From a virus: 64,000 nt of DNA. The stretch lies in the IMG/VR virus record IMGVR_UViG_3300009182_000002, positions 33,730-97,729 of that record, one strand, 5' to 3'. The notes under the pieces are model-generated. The model searched no databases. It was not told the DNA's origin and saw nothing but the letters and a program-made list of their open reading frames with translations. Position numbers and translations under genes: made by a program. How positions within the stretch are numbered: the stretch's first letter is position 1; the number at the start of each line of letters is the position of its first letter. Positions 1 through 34,597 of this stretch are shown in pieces.

Positions 1-15
1 TACTGCGTCATCAAC

Positions 16-81
16 TAGGCGAAACAGGGCCATCGCGGCCCTGTCCACGGGGTTGGCATCCCCGTGCTGACGAGCCTGCCA
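16..81 (+). ncRNA. Hammerhead ribozyme, type II topology
   Basis: AGGC(17-20)-GAAA-stem III CAGGGCC/GGCCCTG-TC (GUC triplet 43-45)-stem I CACGGGG/CCCCGTG-CTGACGA(67-73)-GCCT. Loop I TGGCA is complementary to the 3' tail TGCCA (pseudoknot). Confidence 0.93.
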
Positions 82-102
82 CCAACCTAGGAGAGTGAAG
101 CC

Positions 103-1551
103 TTGACAACTGGACTGCCCACATTCGCCGCGCTGATTCGCAGCGCGCCGGGTCCTGACAACCGCTGGTGCGAGGTCCTCATCGTGAGGTCCTTCGACAC
201 CTTCTCACCGCTGCACGTTCCCGGCGTTGGACCAGCGCCGCTGTTCTACATCCGGAACACCGGGGGCGGTCGGGGACCGTCCAACGCATGGGTCGCCGTC
301 ACCGACGTTCCTGCTCAGGAGCGCGCTGCATGGTGCGGCAATGACCCTCTCGTCGTGCCGCTCACCACGCACGACGTGACCGCAGTTGCTAGCGCTCGCA
401 ACTTGCCGCCCAAGTCGCTGCTCACGCGGCTCCAGTCGCGCATCGACCGCGTGCCGCTCAATCAAGCCGTTGGGCTAACCATTGGCAACGTCGTTGACGC
501 TCTGGTGCAGGCCACCGACGTGTTCGCCACGGTCGTGCCTGCTGCTCCCAAGGTCGCCCCGGCTCAGGTCGTGGTGGCCGCGCCGGTCATTCCTCAGGTG
601 TCGGCCATCCCGGCTCCCGTGCTGACAGTGCCGGTTGCCAGCACGGCACCGGTTGCCAGCGCTGGTCCCGTGGTCGTGCTTGACGACGACCAGCCCGACT
701 CCGACGACGGCTCCGTCACGGTCGTCGTGCAGGACGGCGCGTGCCGCAAGGCCATCGTCCTGCCGCCGTCGTTCGCTGACTCGTACATCCACCGTGCGGT
801 GTTCGGAGTCGATGACTTCACGGTGCTGGATGAGGCACGGGCCAAGGGCGACAGCGTCGGGCTGTACGGCCCCACGGGCTCTGCCAAGACCACCGTTGCC
901 AAGGCTTACGCGGCAGCGCGCGGTCTCCCGTATGTGCAGGTCTCAGGCACCGCGACGATGGAAGAGTCGCGGATGTTCGGTCGCTGGATCGACCTTGGCC
1001 AGTGGCAGGACGGCGTCGTCAGCGAGGTGGTCCGCTACGGCGGTCTACTCATCCTTGACGAGATCAACATGCTCCCGCCGAACATCAGCGCGAGCCTGTT
1101 CCCGCTGCTTCGCGAGCGGGTCCTCACCCTGCACGACAAGGACGGCGAGACCATCACCGCCCACCCGTCGCTGATCGTCATCGCGACGTGGAACCCGAAC
1201 TACTCCGGTACGCGCGAACTGAACGCCGCGCTCGCCAACCGGTTCGGGGTGCAGGTTGAGTGGGGCTACGACGACCGTGTTGAGAAGGCGCTTGGCATCT
1301 GCAACAGCCTTCGCGCTGCTGCTGGTCGCCTTCGTGCCAGCGAGGTCAAGGGCGAGGTCAGCGCCCCCTGCCCGACCAACGCGCTGGTTGACTTCCAGCA
1401 CTACGCCGGTCGGCTGGGGCTGGACTTCGCGGTTGGCAACTTCGTCGCCCGGTACCACGACGATGTTGAGCGCAAGGCCGTGCAGGCCGTGTTCGACACC
1501 TTCCGTTCCAGCATCGAAAACGAGTTGGGGCTGGCTCAGGCAACCGTCTGA
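103..1551 (+). CDS. MoxR/CbbQ/CobS-like AAA+ ATPase
   Basis: Walker A GPTGSAKT, Walker B LILDEIN, ATWNP sensor, ALANRF Arg finger; SD AGGAGAG before TTG. Confidence 0.9.
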   Translation: MTTGLPTFAALIRSAPGPDNRWCEVLIVRSFDTFSPLHVPGVGPAPLFYIRNTGGGRGPSNAWVAVTDVPAQERAAWCGNDPLVVPLTTHDVTAVASARNLPPKSLLTRLQSRIDRVPLNQAVGLTIGNVVDALVQATDVFATVVPAAPKVAPAQVVVAAPVIPQVSAIPAPVLTVPVASTAPVASAGPVVVLDDDQPDSDDGSVTVVVQDGACRKAIVLPPSFADSYIHRAVFGVDDFTVLDEARAKGDSVGLYGPTGSAKTTVAKAYAAARGLPYVQVSGTATMEESRMFGRWIDLGQWQDGVVSEVVRYGGLLILDEINMLPPNISASLFPLLRERVLTLHDKDGETITAHPSLIVIATWNPNYSGTRELNAALANRFGVQVEWGYDDRVEKALGICNSLRAAAGRLRASEVKGEVSAPCPTNALVDFQHYAGRLGLDFAVGNFVARYHDDVERKAVQAVFDTFRSSIENELGLAQATV

Positions 1552-1615
1552 GCCAGCACCAGCACCACCTAGCAAGCCCTACCAACCACTACCAACCTCT
1601 AGGAGAGCGATCACC

Positions 1616-2542
1616 TTGGCAATCACTTCACCCCTCACCGCCGACCGCTTGCTTGGCCCCGGCGCTGAACGTGGCGAGCGGCTCGCACGCCTCGCCGCCA
1701 TCTTCACCAAGTCCAACAGCATCCTGTCCGGTCAGTCGGTCAAGGTGCGTATTGAGACCAACGACTGGGCTTGCCCACCGGCCCCGGCATGGTCCGATGG
1801 CCAGAACATCTGGTTCAAGGGCAGCGACATTCGTGACGCTGACTTCGACTCCATCGTCAACCTGTACGGTCTCAACTACCACGAACTGGGCCACATCCTG
1901 TGGACACCCCGTCAGTCGCACCCGCTGGCGACTTGGGCTTGGCGCAACCGTCACTGGTCCACGATGAACCTCTTGGAAGACCAGCGCATCGAAACGGCGA
2001 TGACCCGCCGCTGGCCTTCGACGGCACCGTGGCTCACCGCGTGCGTCCTGCGCTGGGTGCTGGCCGACCCCAAGACCCTCAGCACGTCCTACCTGCTGCT
2101 GCGTGGTCGTCGCTTCCTCCCGGCTGACGTGCGCGGACTGTCACGTCAGGCCTTCGAGCGTCAGGACCTGCTCCCTGAGGTTGACCGCATCGTTGACGCC
2201 TACCGGGAACTGCGCTTCCCAGAGAAGCCCAACCTGCGCCGCGTATCGGAGCGCAACCTGTACGACCGTGCTCAGGCGCTGATCACCGACTACAGCGCGC
2301 TGATTGCCAGCCTTAACAACCAGCCCACGTCGTCGCCTAACCACGGCAACGACGAGACATCACCGGTAACCAACGGCTACCCAGCGCCTCACGATCCCAA
2401 TGAGGCCAACACCGACGACCAGTACGACGACGAGCCCCAGCCCGGTCAGGGTAGCGACGGGGACCAGAACGACCAGCACGACGACACCAACGACAGCGGC
2501 GCGGGCACCCCGTGCTGCTCCTGCGACGGAGGCAGCCACTGA
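1616..2542 (+). CDS. HExxH metallopeptidase-like protein (N-terminal half of a CobT-like MoxR partner)
   Basis: HELGH plus NLLEDQRIE motif; acidic tail; TTG start after AGGAGAG (1601-1607). Confidence 0.8.
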   Translation: MAITSPLTADRLLGPGAERGERLARLAAIFTKSNSILSGQSVKVRIETNDWACPPAPAWSDGQNIWFKGSDIRDADFDSIVNLYGLNYHELGHILWTPRQSHPLATWAWRNRHWSTMNLLEDQRIETAMTRRWPSTAPWLTACVLRWVLADPKTLSTSYLLLRGRRFLPADVRGLSRQAFERQDLLPEVDRIVDAYRELRFPEKPNLRRVSERNLYDRAQALITDYSALIASLNNQPTSSPNHGNDETSPVTNGYPAPHDPNEANTDDQYDDEPQPGQGSDGDQNDQHDDTNDSGAGTPCCSCDGGSH

Positions 2543-3735
2543 TGAACGACGACACCATGCCCAACACAAGCGCCTGCTCCTGCGGTTGCCACGGTCCTGC
2601 CGCTGGCAACGAGCCTGCCAACGACCAGCCGGGTGGCTCTGGCAACGAGCCGGGTCAGCCCCAGCCCGGCAACGAGCCGGGTCGGCCCGGCAACGGCGAC
2701 CAGCCCGGCGACCAGCCCGGCGAGGGCGAGGGTCAGGGCGAGGGCGACCAGCCCGGTGAGTCCGACGGCGGCGGCGCGAACGGCGGCGCTGGCTCCGACG
2801 GCGAGACCGGGCTGGACGGCGGCGAGGCCAACGGTGCTGGCACCGGGGTTACCAACGCCCCCGACATTGCCAAGGCCTTGCAAGACGCTGCTAGCAAGGC
2901 TCTCGACAACATCACCAACGACGTCGATATCGCTGGCGAGGCCAGCAGCGCTGTCAACGCTGTTGTCAAGGGCGGCGGTCACGTCCAGATCCTGCGCGAC
3001 TCCCGCTTCGACACCTTCGCCCCCAGCGACGAGGCTCGCCTCGCTGAGCGCCGCGCGGTGCGGGAGTTCAACACCCTCCGCGCAGACGCTGAGGAGGGCT
3101 GGGACCGCGCCCGTCCGCAGGGTCGGCTGAACGTCGGTCGCTACATCTCTAGCAACGGGGACCTTGACGTGGCCTTCGACCAGTGGCGTGACCGCAAGGG
3201 TGACGCCTCCGACCTTGAGGTTGTGCTACTGCTGGACGACTCAATGTCCATGGCTTCCTACCGCGTGGTCAGCGCGGAGGCCATGTGGGTACTCAAGCGT
3301 GGCCTTGACGCCATCGGTGCCAACACCACGGTGGTCATGTTCCACTCCGAGTCCCGCGTCCTGTACAAGCCGACCGACAAGGCTGAGGCGGGTCGCCTCC
3401 GCTGCTCAACTGAGAGCGGCGGCACTGACCCCAGCGAGGGCATCGCTCAGGCGGCGCGCATCTTCGCCGGGAGCCGCAAGGGTCAGAAGGTGCTGATCAC
3501 CATCACCGATGGCGACTACTGGGGTGAGTCTGTCCCTGCCAACTGCGACTACAACATTGACGACATTGTCAAGGCCATGACCAACAGCGGCGTCGTCACT
3601 GCTCAGGTCCTGTTCAACCACGCGAGCGAGCAGACTCACGGGCACGCGATCAGCACTCAGGTCTCGCAGGTTGAGGAGATCGCGTCCTTTGCCAAGGAAC
3701 TTGTCAAGGCTGCTATCAAGTCTCGCCAGCGCTAG
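2542..3735 (+). CDS. von Willebrand factor A (vWA) domain protein
   Basis: MIDAS DDSMS, GGT, ITITDG; Gly/Asp/Gln-rich N-terminal linker; TGATG overlap with the upstream gene and GGAGG at 2528-2532. Confidence 0.85.
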   Translation: MNDDTMPNTSACSCGCHGPAAGNEPANDQPGGSGNEPGQPQPGNEPGRPGNGDQPGDQPGEGEGQGEGDQPGESDGGGANGGAGSDGETGLDGGEANGAGTGVTNAPDIAKALQDAASKALDNITNDVDIAGEASSAVNAVVKGGGHVQILRDSRFDTFAPSDEARLAERRAVREFNTLRADAEEGWDRARPQGRLNVGRYISSNGDLDVAFDQWRDRKGDASDLEVVLLLDDSMSMASYRVVSAEAMWVLKRGLDAIGANTTVVMFHSESRVLYKPTDKAEAGRLRCSTESGGTDPSEGIAQAARIFAGSRKGQKVLITITDGDYWGESVPANCDYNIDDIVKAMTNSGVVTAQVLFNHASEQTHGHAISTQVSQVEEIASFAKELVKAAIKSRQR

Positions 3736-3744
3736 CAACGGGCT

Positions 3745-3777
3745 AACCCAGCAGGCCCCAAAGGGGCCTGCTGGGTT
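3745..3777 (+). terminator. Strong hairpin after the vWA gene (probable terminator)
   Basis: 15-bp perfect stem AACCCAGCAGGCCCC-AAA-GGGGCCTGCTGGGTT; only a weak U-tract follows. Confidence 0.65.
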
Positions 3778-3805
3778 GCTTCCCAACACAAGCAATTACC
3801 AACCC

Positions 3806-3849
3806 CAGCGCGACTAGCAGCCACCCCGGTGCAAGGCCGGGGCGCGCAC
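3806..3849 (+). repeat. 44-nt structured repeat, copy 1 (T-loop hairpin, tRNA-like)
   Basis: Identical to 4866-4909; GCGCG/CGCGC stem enclosing CCCCGG-TGCAAGG-CCGGGG. Confidence 0.85.
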
Positions 3850-3887
3850 TGGTGCGACGAGCGCACCTAGCAACGAGAGGAATGCCA

Positions 3888-4079
3888 ATGCCCGAGATCA
3901 ACGCCACCTACACCGTCGATGTTGACGGCACCCTTCACATCACACACCGCGAGTGCGGCGTCGTTCAAGAAGTCAAGCCGGTGCGCGAGTTCGCTGACGG
4001 CACCTGCTCGTTCGGTTCCGATGCCGACGTGTGCCTCGCCTGCGAGAACGAGGGTCGCCCGGCGACCCTCAACTACTAG
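3888..4079 (+). CDS. Small Cys/His-containing hypothetical protein
   Basis: SD GAGAGG; HRECG...CLAC. Confidence 0.7.
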   Translation: MPEINATYTVDVDGTLHITHRECGVVQEVKPVREFADGTCSFGSDADVCLACENEGRPATLNY

Positions 4080-4090
4080 GGGGCTGGCTC

Positions 4091-4228
4091 ATGCTGCACA
4101 GCGCACGATCCCGAGCCCACCACGGCCATCGCGGTTGCTACTGCTGCGACTGGCCCGTAAGCAACCGCACACTTCGCCAGCGCGAGAGGCGCGCTTGGCA
4201 ACGACAGATTGAGAGGGAGTACGCATGA
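4091..4228 (+). CDS. Small basic hypothetical protein (CYCC motif)
   Basis: Fills the gap between neighbours; ATGA overlap with the next gene. Confidence 0.6.
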   Translation: MLHSARSRAHHGHRGCYCCDWPVSNRTLRQRERRAWQRQIEREYA

Positions 4229-4470
4229 CCCACATCCCGGCGCAGGACGCCAACAACGCAACCGTCATCCGGTTGCTTGAGGAGATCGCCTCGCTTCAAG
4301 CAACCATCGACTCGCTCATCCCACGCGAGGACCCCGAGGTTCGGGCCGAGCGTTACCGCACCACGGCGAGCGACCGCTTCCAGTACAGCGACGGCGCTGA
4401 CGCTGTCGGCTTCCATCTTGAGCGCATGTCCGCGCCCGACTACGACCCCTACTACGACGAGAGGTACTGA
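4225..4470 (+). CDS. Hypothetical protein
   Basis: SD GAGGGAG, ATGA overlap, GC3-rich codons. Confidence 0.7.
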   Translation: MTHIPAQDANNATVIRLLEEIASLQATIDSLIPREDPEVRAERYRTTASDRFQYSDGADAVGFHLERMSAPDYDPYYDERY

Positions 4471-4472
4471 CC

Positions 4473-4784
4473 ATGACCACGATCACCATCACCATCCCGA
4501 CCGACCTCGCAGACGCCATCGCAGATGCGCTGACCAAGTGCGTGCTGCGGGCCAGCGCTGACGCTGAACGGACTGTCGCAGGGCCAGCGTACGAGCGAGC
4601 AGAAGAGGCAACCCGGTACTTCGGGGACGCGCTCGTCGCCTTCAACTACGCCCGCGACATTGACCCTCTAGCGCGAGAGTGCGGGGCATGCGGTGCGGAG
4701 TCAGGCGAGGACTGCCGGTGGCACTGCACCGCGCGGCCCGACGATGACAACGTGCCCAACACAAGCAATCTCATCGACGCTTAG
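4473..4784 (+). CDS. Hypothetical protein with a C-terminal Zn-finger-like motif
   Basis: CGACG..EDC..HC; SD GAGAGG. Confidence 0.7.
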   Translation: MTTITITIPTDLADAIADALTKCVLRASADAERTVAGPAYERAEEATRYFGDALVAFNYARDIDPLARECGACGAESGEDCRWHCTARPDDDNVPNTSNLIDA

Positions 4785-4865
4785 GGCTTGGCTTACCCAC
4801 TGCGGTTGTCCAAGAATGTTGTCGGAGGCAGGAATACCAAGATCAACTAAGGGTGTTGCCACACT

Positions 4866-4909
4866 CAGCGCGACTAGCAGCCACCCCGGTGCAAGGCCGG
4901 GGCGCGCAC
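4866..4909 (+). repeat. 44-nt structured repeat, copy 2
   Basis: Identical to 3806-3849. Confidence 0.85.
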
Positions 4910-4954
4910 GCTCACGACGAACCGTTCGTCGTATGTAGCCAAAGGAGGGCCAAC

Positions 4955-5239
4955 ATGGCCGAGTACATCTTCATTGAGGAAGAACCGCAGGTTAGTTCAG
5001 GACCACGCCTCAACCACCAGCAGGTCACGCTCGCGCGTCGTGTGCGTGACGCAGGCGGCTGGGTTGCCGTCATTCGCTTCGACAAGAAGTCGGCGGCGAA
5101 CGTCGCGGCCTCCCGCATCCGTCGCGGCAACGCGGCGTCGTGGGCGTACGTCGGCACCTTCGACACCAAGGTCGGCCAGCGCCCCGGCGAGTCCGAGTGG
5201 ACCGTCTACGCGCTCTACACCGGAGAGGCAAGCAACTGA
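4955..5239 (+). CDS. Hypothetical protein, paralogue of 6555-6887
   Basis: SD AAGGAGG; shared GWVAV / RI..G..A.W..VGTFD / VYA pattern. Confidence 0.75.
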   Translation: MAEYIFIEEEPQVSSGPRLNHQQVTLARRVRDAGGWVAVIRFDKKSAANVAASRIRRGNAASWAYVGTFDTKVGQRPGESEWTVYALYTGEASN

Positions 5240-5760
5240 TGACTACCACCAACCAACCCACCGTTGACGAGCAGCGCGCACAGGTCTTGGCTGACAACCC
5301 CGGCCTTGACAAGGCGTTGACAACCAACCACCACATCGTTGAGGACATCTCCGCCCGCTTCGCTGCGACCGGTCGCCTTTCCGAGAAGCAGATCGCGCTC
5401 GTCTTCAAACTCGCCAAGCAAGACGCTGCCGCTAAGCAGCGTGAGGCTGAGCGCGAGGTAGCAGACATGCTGGTCCGCGAGTCTGGCATCACCATCACCC
5501 CCGGCAAGCAGGTCATCTTCGGAAGCGTCGTGTCTCTCAACCTGAAGGACAGCGGCTTCGGCCCGACGTGGAAGATGATCGTTGAGCACCCCAGCGGTCT
5601 GAAGTACTGGGGCACCGTCCCTAGCAACCTCGTCGGTGCTCTTGCCAAGGGTGATCAAGTTGAGTTCACCGCAACCGTGTCGGTCTCCGACAACGATCCA
5701 AAACCCATCTTCGGGTTCTACAAGCGCCCGACCAACGCCGCACTTATCAAGTCGGCCTGA
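5239..5760 (+). CDS. Hypothetical protein with a possible C-terminal OB-fold
   Basis: TGATG overlap; beta-rich C-terminus (GDQVEFTATV...GFYKRP). Confidence 0.7.
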   Translation: MTTTNQPTVDEQRAQVLADNPGLDKALTTNHHIVEDISARFAATGRLSEKQIALVFKLAKQDAAAKQREAEREVADMLVRESGITITPGKQVIFGSVVSLNLKDSGFGPTWKMIVEHPSGLKYWGTVPSNLVGALAKGDQVEFTATVSVSDNDPKPIFGFYKRPTNAALIKSA

Positions 5761-5776
5761 CAAGGAGGAACACAGA

Positions 5777-6130
5777 ATGATTGACAAGAAGCAGGTAGTG
5801 ATTCCAATTACCGTTGATGCCGCCGAGTTCTGGTCGGCCATCTTCGGAGCCGAGCCGTTCATCTGGCCATGGTGGGTCAAGGTGGACTACGCCGAGGGCT
5901 GCGACTGGGAGACCCCCGGCGAGGTCACCATCACCGTCGCTGACCCCGACGACGCTGAGGACAGCACGACCAAGACCCTCACGCTTGAGGATCTTGTCGC
6001 CGCGTACCTCATCGCGCTGGAGCAGTATCCGCGTTCTGTTGGCGTCGGCTGGGAGACCCCCGACTTCGACTCTGAGAGCAGCGACCTCATCCTCCAGATC
6101 GCAGTGCAGGGTGAGGTGGTGTTCGGATGA
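5777..6130 (+). CDS. Acidic phage early hypothetical protein
   Basis: SD AAGGAGG; C-terminal D..LQ.A..GEVVFG motif. Confidence 0.75.
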   Translation: MIDKKQVVIPITVDAAEFWSAIFGAEPFIWPWWVKVDYAEGCDWETPGEVTITVADPDDAEDSTTKTLTLEDLVAAYLIALEQYPRSVGVGWETPDFDSESSDLILQIAVQGEVVFG

Positions 6131-6249
6131 GCATCTGCCAATGGTTCGCCTTGTGCGACCGAGAGGCCACGCAGTCTGTCCCTCACCCCGTGCTGGGTGA
6201 TGTCCCGACGTGCGACCGCTGCGCGTCGTTCGCCAATGGGGGTGCCTGA
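6127..6249 (+). CDS. 40-aa Cys-rich microprotein (MSICQWFALCDREATQSVPHPVLGDVPTCDRC...)
   Basis: Translated by hand; ATGA overlap, SD GAGG; below the ORF-track cutoff. Confidence 0.7.
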   Translation: MSICQWFALCDREATQSVPHPVLGDVPTCDRCASFANGGA

Positions 6250-6250
6250 C

Positions 6251-6394
6251 ATGGAGCAGGTCATCAACATCGACTTCACAGACCTTGACGACGCTTACCA
6301 CAAGATCGTCAAGTTGCTAGTAGACAACGGAATGGTTGACCGGGAGGCGCGCGTTTCGGCGCGCTTCCTGCTCGCCGGAGTGGAGGACAAGTGA
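6251..6394 (+). CDS. Small hypothetical protein
   Basis: ATG right after the upstream stop; GTGA overlap downstream. Confidence 0.6.
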   Translation: MEQVINIDFTDLDDAYHKIVKLLVDNGMVDREARVSARFLLAGVEDK

Positions 6395-6552
6395 GACTCA
6401 CAACCCGAGGCTGGGTCTGCCTGTGGACGTTGGTATGCGTGCTTGCTATCGCTGTCAACGCTGCTTTCGCAGACAAGCAGGTCGAGTGCCGCGTCGAGAA
6501 CCTCTCGACATGCCACATAACAACAACCGCTAACAACATCGGAGGCAACTAA
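6391..6552 (+). CDS. 53-aa membrane protein (MRLTTRG + TM helix)
   Basis: Translated by hand; SD GGAGG; hydrophobic stretch WVCLWTLVCVLAIAVNAAFA. Confidence 0.7.
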   Translation: MRLTTRGWVCLWTLVCVLAIAVNAAFADKQVECRVENLSTCHITTTANNIGGN

Positions 6553-6554
6553 CA

Positions 6555-6887
6555 ATGACTGTCAAGCACATCTTTGAAGTCGGCGACCCGACGTCCAACA
6601 CAAGCGCATCAATCTTCGCTCTCAACCAAGAGACCATCCAAACAGCAGAGCGAGTGGCCGCAGCCGATGGCTGGGTGGCTGTGCTGGAGTACCCCGAGCC
6701 TGAGCGCAGTACGGCAGCAACCACAGCGCACCGGATCAAGCACGGCAAGAGCGCCGCGTGGAACAGCGTGGGCACCTTTGACGCCACAGTGCGGAAGACC
6801 AACTGGGGAACCGTGAAGGTCTACGCACGCTGCATCACTCGCTGGAGTGATCGTGATGACCCTTCAATCGCACCATGGGATAGGTGA
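6555..6887 (+). CDS. Hypothetical protein, paralogue of 4955-5239
   Basis: SD GGAGG; aligns by eye with the 4955-5239 product. Confidence 0.75.
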   Translation: MTVKHIFEVGDPTSNTSASIFALNQETIQTAERVAAADGWVAVLEYPEPERSTAATTAHRIKHGKSAAWNSVGTFDATVRKTNWGTVKVYARCITRWSDRDDPSIAPWDR

Positions 6888-6894
6888 TGTACCG

Positions 6895-7314
6895 ATGCAG
6901 ACATTCCTGCCGTACGCAGACTTCGTTGACAGCGCCAAGGTGCTAGACAGACAACGCCTTGGCAAGCAACGAGTTGAGGCCTACCAGATTCTTCGCACGC
7001 TTCGGGGTGAGTCCAACGGCTGGTCTCATCACCCGGCAACCCGCATGTGGAAGGAACACACTCAAGCGCTCGCCGCGTATGGGTTCGTAGTGTGCAGCGA
7101 GTGGATAGCCCGTGGTTATAAAGACAACCTGCGTCTCTACTTCGCGCAGCGTCTGGCGCAGCCCAAGGCTCTTGTCATGCCTGAGTGGTTAGGTGATGAG
7201 GCTTTCCACCTGTCACACCAGAGCAACCTCGTTCGTAAAGACCCGCAGCACTACGGCGCGTTCTTCCCTGACGTACCGTCTGACCTTCCCTATGTCTGGC
7301 CCATCTGGGCCTGA
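6895..7314 (+). CDS. Pyrimidine-dimer DNA glycosylase/endonuclease V-like (MSMEG_6728 family)
   Basis: MQTFLPY, LD..RLGKQRVEA.QI, HPA..MW, SH.SNL.RKDP..Y motifs. Confidence 0.88.
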   Translation: MQTFLPYADFVDSAKVLDRQRLGKQRVEAYQILRTLRGESNGWSHHPATRMWKEHTQALAAYGFVVCSEWIARGYKDNLRLYFAQRLAQPKALVMPEWLGDEAFHLSHQSNLVRKDPQHYGAFFPDVPSDLPYVWPIWA

Positions 7315-7409
7315 CGCGCACCACCAGCCGTGAAGTAGGGGCAACAAGGCCCTGACGCCACACCGCTCGCAGGAGAGGGCACGGCAACGATCCCTTAGGA
7401 GGGGACAGC

Positions 7410-7850
7410 ATGGAGACAACCATCTACAACGGCCCTGCCCGATTCATTGGATACCGTGGTCGCGAGTGCAAGACCGACCGCATCCGCGAGGTCGTGATCC
7501 AACTGTCTGACGGCACGCTCCACACCGAGTACTTCTGTGAGCAGTGCGACTATCGCGCGGCTAAGTCCGCGTCGGTGCGCGGTCACTTGTCGCTGCACCC
7601 ACTGCCGGGTAAGCCCCGCAGTGGCCGTCCTGTCGGGTCGCGCAAGCGCTCGCGCCACAGCGACGAGGTCAACGAGGCGATTGAGCGCGAGATCGCTCGT
7701 CGTGTTGAGCGAGAGTTGCAGCGCGGTGCAAGCAAGCGCTCGCTGGAGCGAGAGGTTGCTAGGCAGAGGTTGGCGGAGGTTCGCCGCGAGAACCGCGAAC
7801 TTCGCAAGCGCCTCAAGAACATCCGGGCAGCCATCGTTGGCAACGTTTAG
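7410..7850 (+). CDS. C2H2 Zn-finger / coiled-coil protein, possibly DNA-binding
   Basis: CEQC-x12-H-x3-H; AT-hook-like GRPVGSRK; C-terminal coiled coil; SD AGGAGG. Confidence 0.75.
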   Translation: METTIYNGPARFIGYRGRECKTDRIREVVIQLSDGTLHTEYFCEQCDYRAAKSASVRGHLSLHPLPGKPRSGRPVGSRKRSRHSDEVNEAIEREIARRVERELQRGASKRSLEREVARQRLAEVRRENRELRKRLKNIRAAIVGNV

Positions 7851-7944
7851 CAATTCCTAACAACAGGCGTGGCCCCGGCCTGACACCTACGGGGCACTTC
7901 CGAATGTCAGACCCATCTGCAACACTTCGTTCACACCTAACACC

Positions 7945-8136
7945 TTGGAGGGGAATCCGGTGGATCACACCATCAACGTCGGAAAGACCAGCAAGTGGGA
8001 GACAACGCACGCCTACCGCATGCGTTGCTCATGCGGAGCAGCGTCCTACGTCCACACGCGCAAAGACGCTAACAAAAGCGCGCGCGAACATCTCGCTCAT
8101 GTTGAGAAGCGCGCTGCTGCCGAGGTGAAGCCATGA
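7945..8136 (+). CDS. Small hypothetical protein (CSCG...H); true start may be the internal GTG
   Basis: GGAGG upstream of the internal GTG; ATGA overlap with the next gene. Confidence 0.6.
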   Translation: MEGNPVDHTINVGKTSKWETTHAYRMRCSCGAASYVHTRKDANKSAREHLAHVEKRAAAEVKP

Positions 8137-8306
8137 AGGTTTGCCCAGAGTGCAGCGGGCGCGGCTATCACTACATGCCGGGCCCAACTCCTGACGACAT
8201 TGACGCCGAGGGTTGCCAAGACTGTCGTGGCACCGGCATCCAGTTTCTAACCACTAACCGTATTGCACCGCCCGTTGATTACGACCCCGATGAAAAGGAG
8301 GACTAG
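8133..8306 (+). CDS. 57-aa DnaJ-type Zn-finger microprotein
   Basis: Translated by hand: CPECSGRG ... CQDCRGTG (two CxxCxGxG motifs). Confidence 0.75.
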   Translation: MKVCPECSGRGYHYMPGPTPDDIDAEGCQDCRGTGIQFLTTNRIAPPVDYDPDEKED

Positions 8307-8310
8307 CACC

Positions 8311-8649
8311 ATGCACGATGAAGACACCGAGTTTGAACCGACTGCTTACGAGATTGTGCATTGCATGCACGAGGACAACGAGCCAGTTGTTCACCTGACG
8401 CTGTCTTACGCCGAGGTCAGTCTCATTGCCATGGCGTTGACAGAGTTCGTTCCCGGCGAGATTGAGCGCGCCCGCCTTCAATTCCTCAAGAGCGACGACC
8501 CATCGCTCAAGGCTTCGCTCTGCCGCATCGCGGGGTACGGAGAAGCCGCCCTCATTCAATGGCAGGAGATGGAGGAGGTCATGGCTGAGCCGATGGCCGA
8601 GTACATCGACTGGCATGAGTGGACGCATGAGATGGAGGCCGAGGCGTGA
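8311..8649 (+). CDS. Acidic hypothetical protein
   Basis: SD AAGGAGG; GTGA overlap with whiB. Confidence 0.7.
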   Translation: MHDEDTEFEPTAYEIVHCMHEDNEPVVHLTLSYAEVSLIAMALTEFVPGEIERARLQFLKSDDPSLKASLCRIAGYGEAALIQWQEMEEVMAEPMAEYIDWHEWTHEMEAEA

Positions 8650-8888
8650 ACGCCCCGTCCTTCGACGGCTCCCAGCCGTGCGCGCAGTCGGGTGGGGACT
8701 CATGGTTCCCCGATGACAACTCGTCTTTCACGACAGAGAACAGGATCGCCGCTGCTCTCTGCCAGACATGTCAGTTCAGAGTTCCTTGCTTGGAGTACGC
8801 CGTTGCTAACAACGTCGATGGCATCTGGGGAGGCACCACCCGCAATGACCGAAACGCTATTAAGCGGCAAAGGCGAGGTTCCGCATGA
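8646..8888 (+). CDS. whiB: WhiB-family transcription factor
   Basis: C-x(n)-CxxC-x5-C and GIWGG motif, basic tail. Confidence 0.92.
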   Translation: MNAPSFDGSQPCAQSGGDSWFPDDNSSFTTENRIAAALCQTCQFRVPCLEYAVANNVDGIWGGTTRNDRNAIKRQRRGSA

Positions 8889-9184
8889 CCGCCGCCCGCG
8901 CAAGGTTGCAGGACTACCTGAAGCCCGGTCGTTCCGCGTGGAGCGATGACTACCACAACTCGCCTCACGCGAACACAGATGAAGGGTGTGTGGTGTGTGG
9001 CAAGCGCACGACTCCTGAGAAGCGGATTGTGGTCTGCCTGACAGGTGGTGGCGACGTGCTGGTGCGTCCAGAGGATGAGGAGCGTGAGGAGCGTGAGGAC
9101 GCCGATGGTGGCTTCATGGGCCGCTGGTCGGTTGGGCCTGAATGTGGCCGAGCCATCCCGCAGGAATACAGGGTGTCAGCATGA
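8885..9184 (+). CDS. Zn-finger-like hypothetical protein
   Basis: CVVCG...VGPEC; ATGA overlaps on both sides. Confidence 0.7.
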   Translation: MTAARARLQDYLKPGRSAWSDDYHNSPHANTDEGCVVCGKRTTPEKRIVVCLTGGGDVLVRPEDEEREEREDADGGFMGRWSVGPECGRAIPQEYRVSA

Positions 9185-9360
9185 CCGATCCCTATCCGCC
9201 ACCGCCTCGCAAGAGAGGTGACCCGGTCACCCGTCTTGGTTGGTGCGTTGATAACCACCACGACGAATGCCCGGTGAAGGCGGGTAGGGATCAAGAGTGG
9301 GTGTGCGAGTGTCCTTGCCATCCCGTTGCCAAGAAGAAGAAGACCCGGAAGACCGGCTAG
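9181..9360 (+). CDS. Small Cys/His protein (C...H..C...CECPCH)
   Basis: ATGA overlap; basic tail. Confidence 0.65.
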   Translation: MTDPYPPPPRKRGDPVTRLGWCVDNHHDECPVKAGRDQEWVCECPCHPVAKKKKTRKTG

Positions 9361-9361
9361 A

Positions 9362-9480
9362 CTTCGTAGCCACACTGTGAAAGAGCGACTGGGGCACGCC
9401 AGTATCACGACAACAGAGCAGTACCTCCACCGGATGCGGATGGAGGATGACAACATCAGCAGTGTCATCGGGACCTGCTG
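9362..9480 (+). pseudogene. Tyrosine integrase/recombinase C-terminal remnant
   Basis: VKERLGHASITTTEQYLH (9377-9430) matches box II LGH...Y of tyrosine recombinases; the rest of the enzyme is absent. Confidence 0.75.
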
Positions 9481-9498
9481 TCAGACAAGGAGTAACGA

Positions 9499-9732
9499 AT
9501 GGCCACCAAGCCCGTCTGCCCACGCTGTGGGCACTTCATTCCCAACGACGAACAGCCGGGGGCCTACCCCGGCGCTCTGAGCCGAGCGGACAACGAGACT
9601 GAGGTCTGCTCCGACTGCGGCACCCATGAGGCGCTGGAGCAGTTCTTCAACGCCAACGGGGATCACCGCCCCACTCCTGTCAGCCAGTGGCCTGTCACGG
9701 AGTACCGTCCCCTGTTTACTGCTCTTCACTAG
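9499..9732 (+). CDS. Zn-finger hypothetical protein
   Basis: CPRCG...ALSR.DN...CSDCG; SD AAGGAG. Confidence 0.75.
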   Translation: MATKPVCPRCGHFIPNDEQPGAYPGALSRADNETEVCSDCGTHEALEQFFNANGDHRPTPVSQWPVTEYRPLFTALH

Positions 9733-9836
9733 ACCAGAACGACCGTAAGCCGTGAGTGCGTGGGAAACCGACTCTCAACCCTAACCACGGCAGCGTGAGG
9801 CGAGGCACCCCCTTTCTACCTCGTTGATCACGCAGA

Positions 9837-9871
9837 GAAGCCCCCGGCCTGAACACTAGGCCGGGGGCTTC
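9837..9871. terminator. Hairpin between convergent transcription units (probably bidirectional terminator)
   Basis: 14-bp stem GAAGCCCCCGGCCT/AGGCCGGGGGCTTC at the +/- strand switch. Confidence 0.75.
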
Positions 9872-9929
9872 CCTCATCGACTGTACTGCTGGAGCCTCAG
9901 TGCTACATCGTCCACCGTCATGTAGGGCG

Positions 9930-11948
9930 TCAATTCAACGGCACCTCACAAGCATCGGTCGTGCAGTAGGCCTCTCCAACTGCGTCTAGGGCGTTGCCCT
10001 TGTAGACGCTGTTTAGATTGATCTTCTTCAACTTCCGCTTCCAAGCGTCGTACTCGTCTTTGCTGATCTGGGTGTAGGGCTGCTGCGGATAGACCTTGTT
10101 ACCCATTGGCAAGAACGAGACGGTCTTAAGCCGACCCTCGTACATGTGGAGCACAGTGCCGACATGCTTTGCCTCTGTCTCAGAGTCGAACGACAGGGTG
10201 ACGCTGACGCTGTTGTCAGACCAGTATTGCTGGGCCAACGCGGCGAGGTTCGCTTTCTCAAACAGCGACACGTCCTTCTCCGCGCGCACGGGAACGCTCT
10301 TCACTGGGAAGTAGACCACCGACGTGTTGGAGTCAGTCACAGCGTCTTCCACCGCGTAACCGGCGTCGATGAACTTGGCGACCATGGGGTCGCTTTTGGC
10401 AAACCGGATGGCCCGCAGAACATGCTCGCCACCGGGGGGCCAGTGGACGCCCGGTGTCTCACCCGCGAGGATGCTCACCGTTCCCGAGGGTTTGACTGTC
10501 GTGGTCTTGATCGACTCACGGACGCAGAGCCACTCCGAGTAGATGGAGTCCCAGCGCTGGACCTCGCCGTAGCCGGTGTCGAGCCACTCCCTAAGCAACG
10601 GGAGTGAGCGGGAGTCCGCGAAGCCTGCGAGTCCCGAGACGCTCGTGCCGATGCGGCGGTTGCGCTGCATGATCGCGTTGGTAGTGGGCCAGTGCGTTGG
10701 AATGAGAGTCACGGTCTTGGCGTAGAGGTAAGCAAACTTGAGAGTCCTCAAGAAATCCTTGAGGTCGTCATGCCTATTGATATACGTCTCTACCAACGTG
10801 CAGCACTCGTATGACTCCAACGACTGCTCAGCGCAAGGGTTGTAACCGGCTACGCGATAGTCCTTGTTGTTAACGGGATCGTTCAAGCGACCGTACTTGC
10901 GAGATACATCCAGCCAGATGAAACCCGGCTCACCATTCAAAGCAATGTTCTCAACGAACGGCGAGTAGTCCATACCAACGGTTGCTTCCAATGAGTTGTT
11001 AGACATCCAACCCCATCCCGGATTGTCTGGGGAGTAGGAGTTTCGTTCGGGGAAGGTTTCCGGATTCTTTAAATTCACGAAGTCGTTGTCAACGGGCTTG
11101 CCAAGAGCGAGTTCGGCAGAGCGACGCACGTTGCCGGAGACCACGCAGACGCCGATCAGGTTGGCGATGTCAACGATGGTCTTGCTATCAAGAGTCTTGC
11201 CAACCATCGGATCGAGAACCGCGCGCAACTTGGTGTGCAGTCGGATCAACGGCTCGGGACCTGCCGCCGTACCTCCGAAGGTCTTGATCGGTTCACCCGC
11301 AGGACGAATCAATCCGTAGTCGAAGACGTACGTTGGCTGGTTGTTCTTGAGGTATGAGTCCAGCAGCATGCCGACGCTCTCCACCCAGCCCTCACGGGTG
11401 TCGGGGATGACGAAGTCCACCTTGTTGTCAGTGGGGTGGCTGACCTCAATGGCACGGCTCACACCATTTGTGTCGAAGCCGACCCCGATCCCCAGCATGC
11501 TCGCCTCCATGAGGAACAGGAACGGGGCGCTTGGGTTGTTCTTGGTCATGTCAGCGGTAGAGACGAAAGCGCAGTTCTGGAGCGCGGCGCTGTTGCGTCC
11601 CTCCATCACCAACGGAGTGCCCATCATCCACAGACCACGACCGGGAGGCGTCCACTTCAGATTGAAGAGGCGGTCGAATGCTTCCTGAGCACTGGCCTGC
11701 GCTTGGTGCCCGTTCCATGGGAGACGGTTCTCCTTGCAGTGGTCTTTCTGGATGCTGTACATGCCGTTGATAACACGTTCGCACACATCGACCCACGTCT
11801 CCTTGGAGCCGTCCTCCTTCAGGCGCGAGTACGTTCGCATGAAGGTGATCTCACCAACGCTGTTGCCAGCCACGTCGGTGTACCCCCACGGCACAGGCTG
11901 GGTTCGGTAGTACGAGACGAAGTCATCCGTCAGTCGAAACGAAAACAA
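9930..11948 (-). CDS. nrdJ: Class II (adenosylcobalamin) ribonucleoside-triphosphate reductase
   Basis: PPGRGLW, ALQNC, GNVRRSA, NPCAEQ.L, TTVKPSGT, C-terminal CTTDAC. Confidence 0.95.
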   Translation of the reverse strand: MFSFRLTDDFVSYYRTQPVPWGYTDVAGNSVGEITFMRTYSRLKEDGSKETWVDVCERVINGMYSIQKDHCKENRLPWNGHQAQASAQEAFDRLFNLKWTPPGRGLWMMGTPLVMEGRNSAALQNCAFVSTADMTKNNPSAPFLFLMEASMLGIGVGFDTNGVSRAIEVSHPTDNKVDFVIPDTREGWVESVGMLLDSYLKNNQPTYVFDYGLIRPAGEPIKTFGGTAAGPEPLIRLHTKLRAVLDPMVGKTLDSKTIVDIANLIGVCVVSGNVRRSAELALGKPVDNDFVNLKNPETFPERNSYSPDNPGWGWMSNNSLEATVGMDYSPFVENIALNGEPGFIWLDVSRKYGRLNDPVNNKDYRVAGYNPCAEQSLESYECCTLVETYINRHDDLKDFLRTLKFAYLYAKTVTLIPTHWPTTNAIMQRNRRIGTSVSGLAGFADSRSLPLLREWLDTGYGEVQRWDSIYSEWLCVRESIKTTTVKPSGTVSILAGETPGVHWPPGGEHVLRAIRFAKSDPMVAKFIDAGYAVEDAVTDSNTSVVYFPVKSVPVRAEKDVSLFEKANLAALAQQYWSDNSVSVTLSFDSETEAKHVGTVLHMYEGRLKTVSFLPMGNKVYPQQPYTQISKDEYDAWKRKLKKINLNSVYKGNALDAVGEAYCTTDACEVPLN

Positions 11949-11984
11949 AGGTAGTCCTCCTCATTGACATCAGTGGGTAGGTCG

Positions 11985-12014
11985 AAGGTACCAGTTGGTA
12001 AGCCGCGCGGACAA
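11985..12014 (-). promoter_or_regulatory. Putative SigA-type promoter for nrdJ
   Basis: TTGTCC-18 nt-TACCTT upstream of SD GAGGAGG. Confidence 0.4.
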
Positions 12015-33016: not shown

Positions 33017-34597
33017 CTAGACAACGTTGCCTGCCAAGAATGTCCGAAGCGATCCGACGTTCATCTCGATCCCGCCCCGGTCGTTGATGCCGGAACCATC
33101 GATAACCGCGTTGGCCACGCTGTTCTTCTGTTGGAGCATCTCGAATTGACGTTCCTCAATCGAGCCTCTGATCAACAGGTCCTGAATCACGACGTGGTCC
33201 CACTCGCTACTTGCTCTCTGGATGCGGCCATTTCGCTGAACAGCGGTTCCTGAAGACCAAGGCAAATCGTAATTAATTAGCAAGTTTGCTTGGGGGAGAT
33301 CCACCCCGTAGCCGCCAGCATCGCTACTCACGAGTAACTTGTTGCTAGGCGTTGTTTGGAACTGGACCTTGCTGGCCTCCTTTTGCTTCGCGGTCATCTG
33401 CCCCGAGTATTTGATCGGCCCGTATTTGGCCAACCGTTCCGAGATGTAGCCGAGGTTCGGGACGAATACCGAGAAGATCACGGCCTTGGCGTTGGGATCG
33501 GAATCGAGGAAGTCTCCAACGTAGGACACCAAAGCGTCCAGTTTCGGAGTCTTGACTACGCCGTCCAGAAACCCATCCTCCCTGAGGCCGAAGATGTACT
33601 GGCTACCGTTGCCTGACAGCGTGGCGAACTCGCTCGCGCTCTTGTGCAGCAGCCCGGGGTGGTCGCACAGCATCCTCAGCGCGGTCAATTTGGACATAAG
33701 CCTGCCGCGAAGTTCATCGGCTGGGCCTCCCTGATCCGATTGAAACCCGTAGTGACTGAGCAGGCTGAAGCCGCCACCGAACATGGATTGAACCTCGTCC
33801 AAGTCCTGAAGTAGTTCAGAGGTGATGTGTTCATAGAGACGAGCGCCAGCGCCGTCCATACGGACTCTGAGAGGGGCGAGGTGCCGTGTCTCTGGGAGGT
33901 GCGGCCTGACGTCGGGATCGTTCTGGCTTTTACGCACGCTGGCGGTCTGCATCACTTTGTGCAGCACATCAAGGTTCCGGTAGCGCTCTGGAGACCCCCA
34001 GTCGTTCCTGACAATGAAGGTCTTGTCGAATAGATCGAACCTGCCGAGCACCGTGTCGTCAACGAATTGCATGATTGAGAAGAGTTCCTCGGGCTTGCCG
34101 TTCTCAATCGGTGTACCCGTGAGTGCGAACTTGACCGGAGAGTCCAATTTCTTCACGAACTTGGATCGCTTGGAGGAGAAACTCTTTATCGCGGTTGCCT
34201 CATCGAGGACGAGGAAGCCCCTTGGCAACTTGCTAACGAACTTCCAGTCGTTAACAACTTGCTCATAGTTGAGGATCACGTAGTCAATCCCCTCGTTGTC
34301 CCAGTCGTACGCGCGTAGGTACTGCGCCTCGCGCTGGGCCTTAGTGCCATCGATGACCAAGGGGGTGGAATCGCTGAACCGCTCGATGCTCTCGGCCCAC
34401 TGATACTTCAGCGACGACAGAGCGATGACCATGCCGGGCTCCTTGATCGCACCTTCGTCCATCAATCGCTCAATGGCGGCAATGGTGAGCACCGTCTTAC
34501 CGAGCCCAAGGTCGTAGGCCACCAGCATCGATCCTCGTTCGCACATGGCGTCAACTGCCTCTGGTTGGTACGGCAGCAACGTTCCAGTAAAAGTCAC
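33017..34597 (-). CDS. SNF2/SF2 helicase
   Basis: L.PYQ, GLGKT, LDEA, LTGTP, G.G.DL, Q..GR..R. Confidence 0.92.
   Translation of the reverse strand: MTFTGTLLPYQPEAVDAMCERGSMLVAYDLGLGKTVLTIAAIERLMDEGAIKEPGMVIALSSLKYQWAESIERFSDSTPLVIDGTKAQREAQYLRAYDWDNEGIDYVILNYEQVVNDWKFVSKLPRGFLVLDEATAIKSFSSKRSKFVKKLDSPVKFALTGTPIENGKPEELFSIMQFVDDTVLGRFDLFDKTFIVRNDWGSPERYRNLDVLHKVMQTASVRKSQNDPDVRPHLPETRHLAPLRVRMDGAGARLYEHITSELLQDLDEVQSMFGGGFSLLSHYGFQSDQGGPADELRGRLMSKLTALRMLCDHPGLLHKSASEFATLSGNGSQYIFGLREDGFLDGVVKTPKLDALVSYVGDFLDSDPNAKAVIFSVFVPNLGYISERLAKYGPIKYSGQMTAKQKEASKVQFQTTPSNKLLVSSDAGGYGVDLPQANLLINYDLPWSSGTAVQRNGRIQRASSEWDHVVIQDLLIRGSIEERQFEMLQQKNSVANAVIDGSGINDRGGIEMNVGSLRTFLAGNVV

Follow-up and report, generated by a model that had tools for sequence, protein, structure and literature searches.

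The window, that is, the whole 64 kb stretch of DNA analysed here, covers bases 33730-97729 of a 97,729-base viral record that has direct terminal repeats and is estimated to be complete. The bacterial phage, ~98 kb in size and high in GC, resembles actinobacterial phages. In the locus of interest (L001), leftward genes end ~1.3 kb before a ribozyme described below and give way to a long non-coding stretch, after which a block of + strand features follows: a long leader, a tRNA-like element, an 80-aa ORF, the hammerhead ribozyme, a MoxR ATPase gene and a gene for a vWA protein. The 80-aa ORF, as read from the sequence, has a strong Shine-Dalgarno (SD) motif, begins before the window (+ strand, L001 1260-1502) and terminates at a TAG stop codon at positions 16-18 of the window. 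The gene for the MoxR-type AAA+ ATPase (482 aa; Pfam AAA_5, 6.4e-22; PHROG 249, 9.6e-38) runs from a TTG start codon at 103 to 1551 on the + strand, with an SD motif AGGAGAG at 89-95, likewise identified by reading the sequence. A vWA-domain ORF at 2512-3735 (+ strand; Pfam VWA_2, 1.1e-6), the partner of the ATPase, aligns to the vWA proteins of phages GMA6, Gray and Cantare. The small ORF and MoxR, both on the + strand, are separated from stop to start by an 85-nt spacer that holds the ribozyme. Neither a promoter nor an intrinsic terminator was found between these flanking ORFs in the 3 kb scanned with a sigma-70-type consensus only, which is compatible, if weakly, with co-transcription of the small ORF and MoxR.

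When the sequence was compared with all of Rfam using Infernal, the element at 17-84 (+ strand) was matched over its full length (model positions 1-66 of 66) by Hammerhead_II (RF02276), at 42.1 bits (gathering score 37) and an E-value of 1.5e-6 for the first 3 kb and of 3.2e-5 for the 64 kb window (4227 families). This is the sole Rfam match at gathering score within the window, and the single hammerhead of the complete 97.7 kb viral genome. Apart from it, window 1-3000 gave only chance-level matches (E > 3), and window 3000-12000 gave no family at E ≤ 1. A preliminary description of this DNA had placed a type II hammerhead with a loop I-tail pseudoknot immediately upstream of the MoxR ribosome-binding site and had proposed an Infernal search with the Rfam Hammerhead_II model as a check; the above-threshold score, together with the conservation in an orthologue discussed below, bears this identification out.

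The order of parts along the RNA is that of type II: the 5' strand of stem II, GAA, the stem III hairpin, C17, the stem I hairpin, CUGACGA and the 3' strand of stem II, all read on the + strand. Stem II is an open stem of 4 bp, in which the 5' strand AGGC at 17-20 pairs with the 3' strand GCCU at 74-77 (A17-C20 with G74-U77). It is followed by the core nucleotides G12, A13 and A14 at 21-23 (G21, A22 and A23, as read from the sequence) and by A24, which is core position 15.1. The stem III hairpin spans 24-44, with 24-31 pairing to 37-44 over 8 bp around the loop AUCGC and including the A15.1-U16.1 pair (A24-U44). Cleavage is predicted from the family consensus to fall between C45 (position 17) and C46. 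The stem I hairpin, at 46-66, consists of 7 bp (46-52 with 60-66) and the loop UUGGCAU, and leads into the core CUGACGA (C3 to A9) at 67-73, in which the variable position N7 is a C. The last part, 74-81, combines the stem II 3' strand with a tail UGCCA at 77-81; U77-A81 is complementary to U54-A58 of loop I, giving a 5-bp pseudoknot directly 3' of stem II. As U77 is common to stem II and the pseudoknot, the fold would comprise either 4 bp of stem II and 4 of the pseudoknot, or 3 and 5.

The pairs that adjoin the core are all canonical (G74-C20, positions 10.1-11.1; C46-G66, positions 1.1-2.1; A24-U44, positions 15.1-16.1), canonical pairs at these places being what Perreault et al. 2011 (PMC3088659) require for acceptance. 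The catalytic core that RF02276 calls for is present as CUGACGA at 67-73, GAA at 21-23, U44 and C45, and so is a pseudoknot of at least four pairs, typical of most members of the family. By all of the sequence-level criteria of the family, window 17-84 is a type II hammerhead, and it is predicted to cleave itself. Reading the sequence places the core nucleotides, the stems and the pseudoknot exactly where the preliminary description had put them. Its interpretation held as far as the identification goes, and fell short in missing the TAG inside stem II, the hairpin left on the upstream RNA and the absence of the ribozyme from other phages with the MoxR-vWA genes. In particular, A17 and G18 of the TAG stop codon of the small ORF are the outer two bases of the stem II 5' strand. 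On the other side, 26 nt separate stem II from the MoxR start codon, which is 57 nt from the predicted cleavage site.

A ribozyme at the same place was found in a 2.6 kb metagenome contig (L127), the MoxR protein of which is 62% identical to that of the phage under study. Its hammerhead scores 41.9 bits with RF02276, and its layout repeats the one described above, with a tRNA-like element, a small ORF, a TAG overlapping stem II, the hammerhead, an SD motif and a MoxR gene with a TTG start; the GGAG of the SD motif and its spacing to the TTG are kept. A further locus, from an Actinomycetota MAG (L209), is 100% identical to L127, and the conservation analysis is one of two distinct sequences, with L127 as the sole independent orthologue. 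The two ribozymes differ at 9 of 65 positions, eight of which make up four double compensatory pairs (26/42 in stem III; 47/65, 49/63 and 52/60 in stem I), the ninth being in loop III. All 23 model pairs are kept in both sequences (100% of cells paired), compared with 35-44% of cells paired, and no double-changed pair, in a control in which the 3' partners were slid by 1-3 columns. The core (GAA and CUGACGA), the stem II pairs, loop I and the pseudoknot tail are unchanged in L127, and the four non-overlapping pseudoknot pairs are kept in both sequences and never vary. A shuffle control, weak with just two distinct sequences, gave 30/500. Complementarity aside, the chance that eight random changes among the 30 positions of stems I and III would form exactly four pairs is ~2 in 10,000. 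Nucleotide identity between L127 and the window is 86% in the ribozyme, as against 76% in the MoxR gene, 66% in the small ORF and 67% in the spacer before the start codon, and the proteins encoded by the small ORF are only ~36% identical between the two phages. Four double compensatory changes, no broken pair, and conservation above that of the flanking coding sequence thus indicate, at the level of sequence comparison, that the ribozyme fold is maintained by selection.

The orthologue also bears on an alternative pairing. In the minimum-energy fold of window 10-105, AGGC at 17-20 pairs with GCCU at 100-103 rather than with the stem II 3' strand, but this pairing is absent from L127 and was dismissed. 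GCCU at 100-103 extends by one base into the TTG start codon, and its pairing with 17-20 is probably incidental.

On the other side of the small ORF, ~30 nt 5' of it and 257-333 bases before the start of the window, ARAGORN detects a tRNA-like cloverleaf (L001 1152-1228, equivalent to G000 33397-33473). The program calls it tRNA-Ala(GGC), with an anticodon loop CAGGCCA that is without U33, and with the Rfam tRNA model the cloverleaf remains below threshold. The element recurs in L127 (34-110), where the anticodon and T arms are identical and the acceptor stem covaries. In each of the two phages, the small ORF thus lies between the tRNA-like element and the hammerhead. We also note that the 33 bases adjoining the tRNA-like element on its 5' side, which form the 3' end of the ~1.3 kb non-coding leader, are identical at 32 of 33 positions between L001 (1120-1152) and L127 (1-33), above any coding part.

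Among more distant phages the genes are found and the ribozyme is not. A megablast search of window 1-4000 against a collection of isolated phages gave no match, and a locus search of viral contigs with a single protein gave no relative. In its ATPase half, the MoxR protein has ~40% identity with AAA-ATPases from Brevibacterium phage Cantare and from Bendigovirus, a genus of Gordonia phages, and the layout of a divergent non-coding gap, small ORFs, an AAA-ATPase and a vWA protein is common to Cantare, GMA6 and Gray. No hammerhead was found in these three phages, either at the locus (E ≤ 1) or anywhere in the genome. A profile built from eight MoxR relatives led to ten further viral loci, none of which has an Rfam match at E ≤ 0.1; in the closest of them (L216), the corresponding boundary is an 84-nt spacer without a ribozyme. 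Since distant phages carry the same MoxR-vWA genes and no hammerhead, the ribozyme is tied to a lineage and not to the gene; its absence from Cantare, GMA6, Gray and the ten loci further means that the MoxR-vWA genes do not need it.

The position of the ribozyme was compared with that of other type II hammerheads. Searches of viral contigs with a degenerate ribozyme pattern returned at least 120 stretches. When the pattern was narrowed, with its tail unchanged, there were 70 matches in viral sequences and 25 in prokaryote genomes, the latter mostly Actinomycetota (Lentzea, Saccharothrix, Actinosynnema, Streptomyces, Nocardioides and Cellulomonas). The strand of the longest flanking ORF proved too noisy as a measure of context in high-GC DNA, and was therefore replaced by distance distributions with controls. 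Among 154 viral pattern matches, and with crude ORF calls in high-GC DNA, an ORF of at least 60 aa ends between -5 and +12 nt from the ribozyme start in 56% of cases (5% at random positions and 8% on the opposite strand), and an ORF starts 15-45 nt after the ribozyme in 47% (9% at random positions and 8% on the opposite strand). In an enlarged set of 376 type II hammerheads, the offset of the upstream stop peaks at -1 to +5 nt, a range that contains the end of an upstream ORF (60 aa or longer) in 189 cases, and the downstream start peaks at 21-28 nt. With offsets of -1 and 26 nt, the locus studied here falls on both peaks and is a standard case of a stereotyped module consisting of a stop codon, a ribozyme, an SD motif and a start codon. 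We found no description of the stop-codon adjacency of type II hammerheads in the literature examined; its quantification, along with the conserved pairing of a tRNA-like element and a ribozyme around a small ORF, goes slightly beyond that literature. Several viral contigs and actinobacterial genomes (in the latter case presumed prophages) carry dense arrays of approximately one hammerhead per small gene, with seven copies in 3.2 kb in L177, seven in 3.7 kb in L208 (Lentzea sp.) and six each in L170 and L020.

We suggest that a functional hammerhead most likely cuts an early polycistronic transcript between the small ORF and MoxR, leaving a hairpin at each of the new ends. The RNA would fold when transcription has passed the 3' strand of stem II and the pseudoknot tail, and would then cleave itself between C45 and C46. 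The upstream product would retain its stop codon and end in the 8-bp stem III hairpin with a 2',3'-cyclic phosphate, and the MoxR-vWA product would begin with a 5'-OH at C46, inside the stem I/pseudoknot structure and 43 nt before the SD motif. Because stem II is the open stem, each cleavage product would keep a closed hairpin at its new end, and because the products are joined only by the 4 bp of stem II, they should separate. The small-ORF and MoxR-vWA messages, once apart, could then have their own fates in stability and translation. From the arrangement and predicted fold of the locus we infer that the RNA is cleaved in vivo, that the genes are co-transcribed and that stability may be affected, and with these an uncoupling of the small-ORF message from the MoxR-vWA message by the ribozyme. 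A search of the phage genome for an RtcB or RNA ligase able to rejoin or repair the ribozyme ends found none, the nearest candidate for an end-acting enzyme being a sub-threshold P-loop kinase match at G000 72401-72760.

The predicted geometry of the products agrees with this proposal. In the predicted fold of both phages, the stem III hairpin ends the upstream product and a helix lies within 2 nt of the downstream 5' end, and the earlier expectation of a 3' product starting at C46, 43-44 nt ahead of the SD motif and with its 5' end within a helix, is upheld by folding. When the isolated 3' product of the window sequence was folded without the pseudoknot, a heterogeneous ensemble with no dominant stem I hairpin was obtained. 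For the isolated 3' product of L127, an alternative 9-bp helix (L127 482-514) is predicted to be preferred over stem I, formed by the 5' strand and loop of stem I with CGAGCCUGC (the end of the core, the 3' strand of stem II and the tail). The alternative helix may represent a structure in competition with the active fold, or one that is adopted after cleavage.

Perreault et al. 2011 (PMC3088659) reported type II hammerheads flanking prophage genes and proposed that they process long phage transcripts, the role suggested here, and a 2019 review still classes the transcript-processing role as unproven (PMC6765202). The same review describes the 5'-OH product of the glmS ribozyme as degraded by cellular RNases (PMC6765202). 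A 5'-OH end does not always protect an RNA, and the statement in the preliminary description that cleavage would set the stability of the MoxR/vWA mRNA independently of host nucleases is the standard hypothesis, worded too confidently.

The glmS case leads directly to an opposite expectation, in which the ribozyme would be a down-regulator, the MoxR-vWA message being degraded from its 5'-OH end by an RNase J-type host exonuclease. Among bacterial self-cleaving ribozymes, a function is well understood only for glmS, where cleavage is followed by degradation (PMC6765202), and the hammerhead does sit in the future 5' UTR of MoxR. However, the new 5' end is predicted to lie in a helix, with at most two unpaired nucleotides, in both phages. 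A helical 5' end usually hinders 5'-end-dependent nucleases in bacterial mRNA decay. Moreover, a constitutive fast ribozyme of this kind would shut off two large genes that the phage retains, and there is no hint of a ligand-sensing domain by which it could be controlled; we consider down-regulation unlikely. Even harder to credit is that the element is a decaying or chance hammerhead-like sequence with neither activity nor role. It could be argued that only two known related phages carry the ribozyme and that distant relatives with the same genes are without it, but a score above the curated threshold, an E-value of 3.2e-5 and an intact core speak against decay or chance, as do the compensatory changes without a broken pair and the conservation exceeding that of the flanking coding sequence, and we regard such an origin as highly improbable. 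Excision of circular or unit-length RNA by paired ribozymes was rejected, there being no second hammerhead in the genome and no further RNA family above chance level in window 1-12000.

Cleavage could also be gated by translation, with the ribozyme folding only when the small ORF is untranslated, so that the cut reports or enforces the translational state upstream. As the stop codon is inside stem II, a ribosome terminating there would cover this stem together with the 5' half of stem III. The overlap of the TAG at 16-18 with stem II has been kept in both phages despite the low identity of the ORF proteins, and the frequency of upstream stops at -1 to +5 among type II hammerheads is far above controls. 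Against this, the tight packing of phage genes would on its own push a boundary element up to a stop codon, and cleavage could finish before the first ribosome arrives. An influence of ribosome occupancy on ribozyme folding is offered here as a proposal from the arrangement of the sequence, and gating by translation seems to us unlikely. Taking this idea further, the tRNA-like element, the small ORF and the stop-overlapping hammerhead might together form an RNA punctuation module with ribosome-controlled folding of the ribozyme. Two cuts would be involved, one made at the tRNA-like element by tRNA-processing enzymes of the host and the other made by the ribozyme after the stop codon, and together they would give a monocistronic small-ORF message of ~300 nt. 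We put this forward as a speculative extension that is unlikely; if it were true, the stop adjacency in approximately half of the type II hammerheads of phages would suggest that translation and cleavage are generally coupled.

Processing of the early transcript, the reading we prefer, can be set beside several known systems. The hammerhead shares with the RF02276 class (PMC3088659) its core, permuted topology, open stem II, loop I-tail pseudoknot and location between co-oriented phage genes. It differs from many phages and prophages of the class in being present in one copy per complete 97.7 kb genome and not in arrays of 2-7 copies, and in that the small ORF has a tRNA-like element on its far side. 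HHphage of haloviruses HF1 and HF2 precedes the gene that opens an early polycistronic transcript, the 5' end of which was mapped at most 3 nt from the hammerhead cleavage site (PMC3088659). Like HHphage, the hammerhead described here is a few tens of nucleotides before the start codon of an early gene; unlike it, the present one has a consensus core, lies 57 nt from the start codon and belongs to a high-GC bacterial phage, whereas HHphage comes from an archaeal virus, has a variant core and is 13 nt from the start codon. For three type II hammerheads near phage-like genes of Desulfovibrio vulgaris, cleavage in vivo has been shown by cyPhyRNA-seq (PMC8782182). These are of the same family, share the phage-like gene context and are active in cells, but come from a different host phylum, and for the present ribozyme activity is predicted from the sequence. 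The resemblance to glmS is that of a self-cleaving RNA in a 5' UTR, the cut of which decides the fate of the downstream message; glmS, however, is unrelated in fold, requires a metabolite and makes its mRNA less stable, and the hammerhead is without a recognisable sensor.

The ribozyme is an ordinary representative of a class whose frequent occurrence at the boundaries of phage genes is already established, and as one more example in a class of thousands it alone changes little. At the same time, as a single copy in a complete genome, placed at the boundary between a small ORF and a large two-gene unit, it makes a clean test case for the role of hammerheads in phages. Natural comparisons are at hand in the orthologue with compensatory changes and in the ribozyme-free related phages that have the same genes. 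The spacing measured across hundreds of loci, in which the stop codon is a few nucleotides at most from the ribozyme and the start codon follows ~25 nt after it, provides a concrete hypothesis of operon processing with a possible link to translation.

Two features of the downstream genes deserve mention. The N-terminal ~220 residues of the MoxR protein (103-760) have no Pfam or PHROG match and are common only to closer metagenomic relatives (P0002-P0005, P0009, P0016 and P0017), the Bendigovirus and Cantare proteins aligning with MoxR only from about residue 213. The ATPase partner, which in Gray and GMA6 is one gene of 608-638 aa, is here represented by two overlapping ORFs in different frames, 1551-2542 and 2512-3735. 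The former was listed as 1256-2542, overlapping the end of MoxR, and its true start is thus probably near 1551. The region in which the two ORFs join accounts for roughly 100 extra residues, and the split could reflect two genes, a frameshift or a sequencing error.
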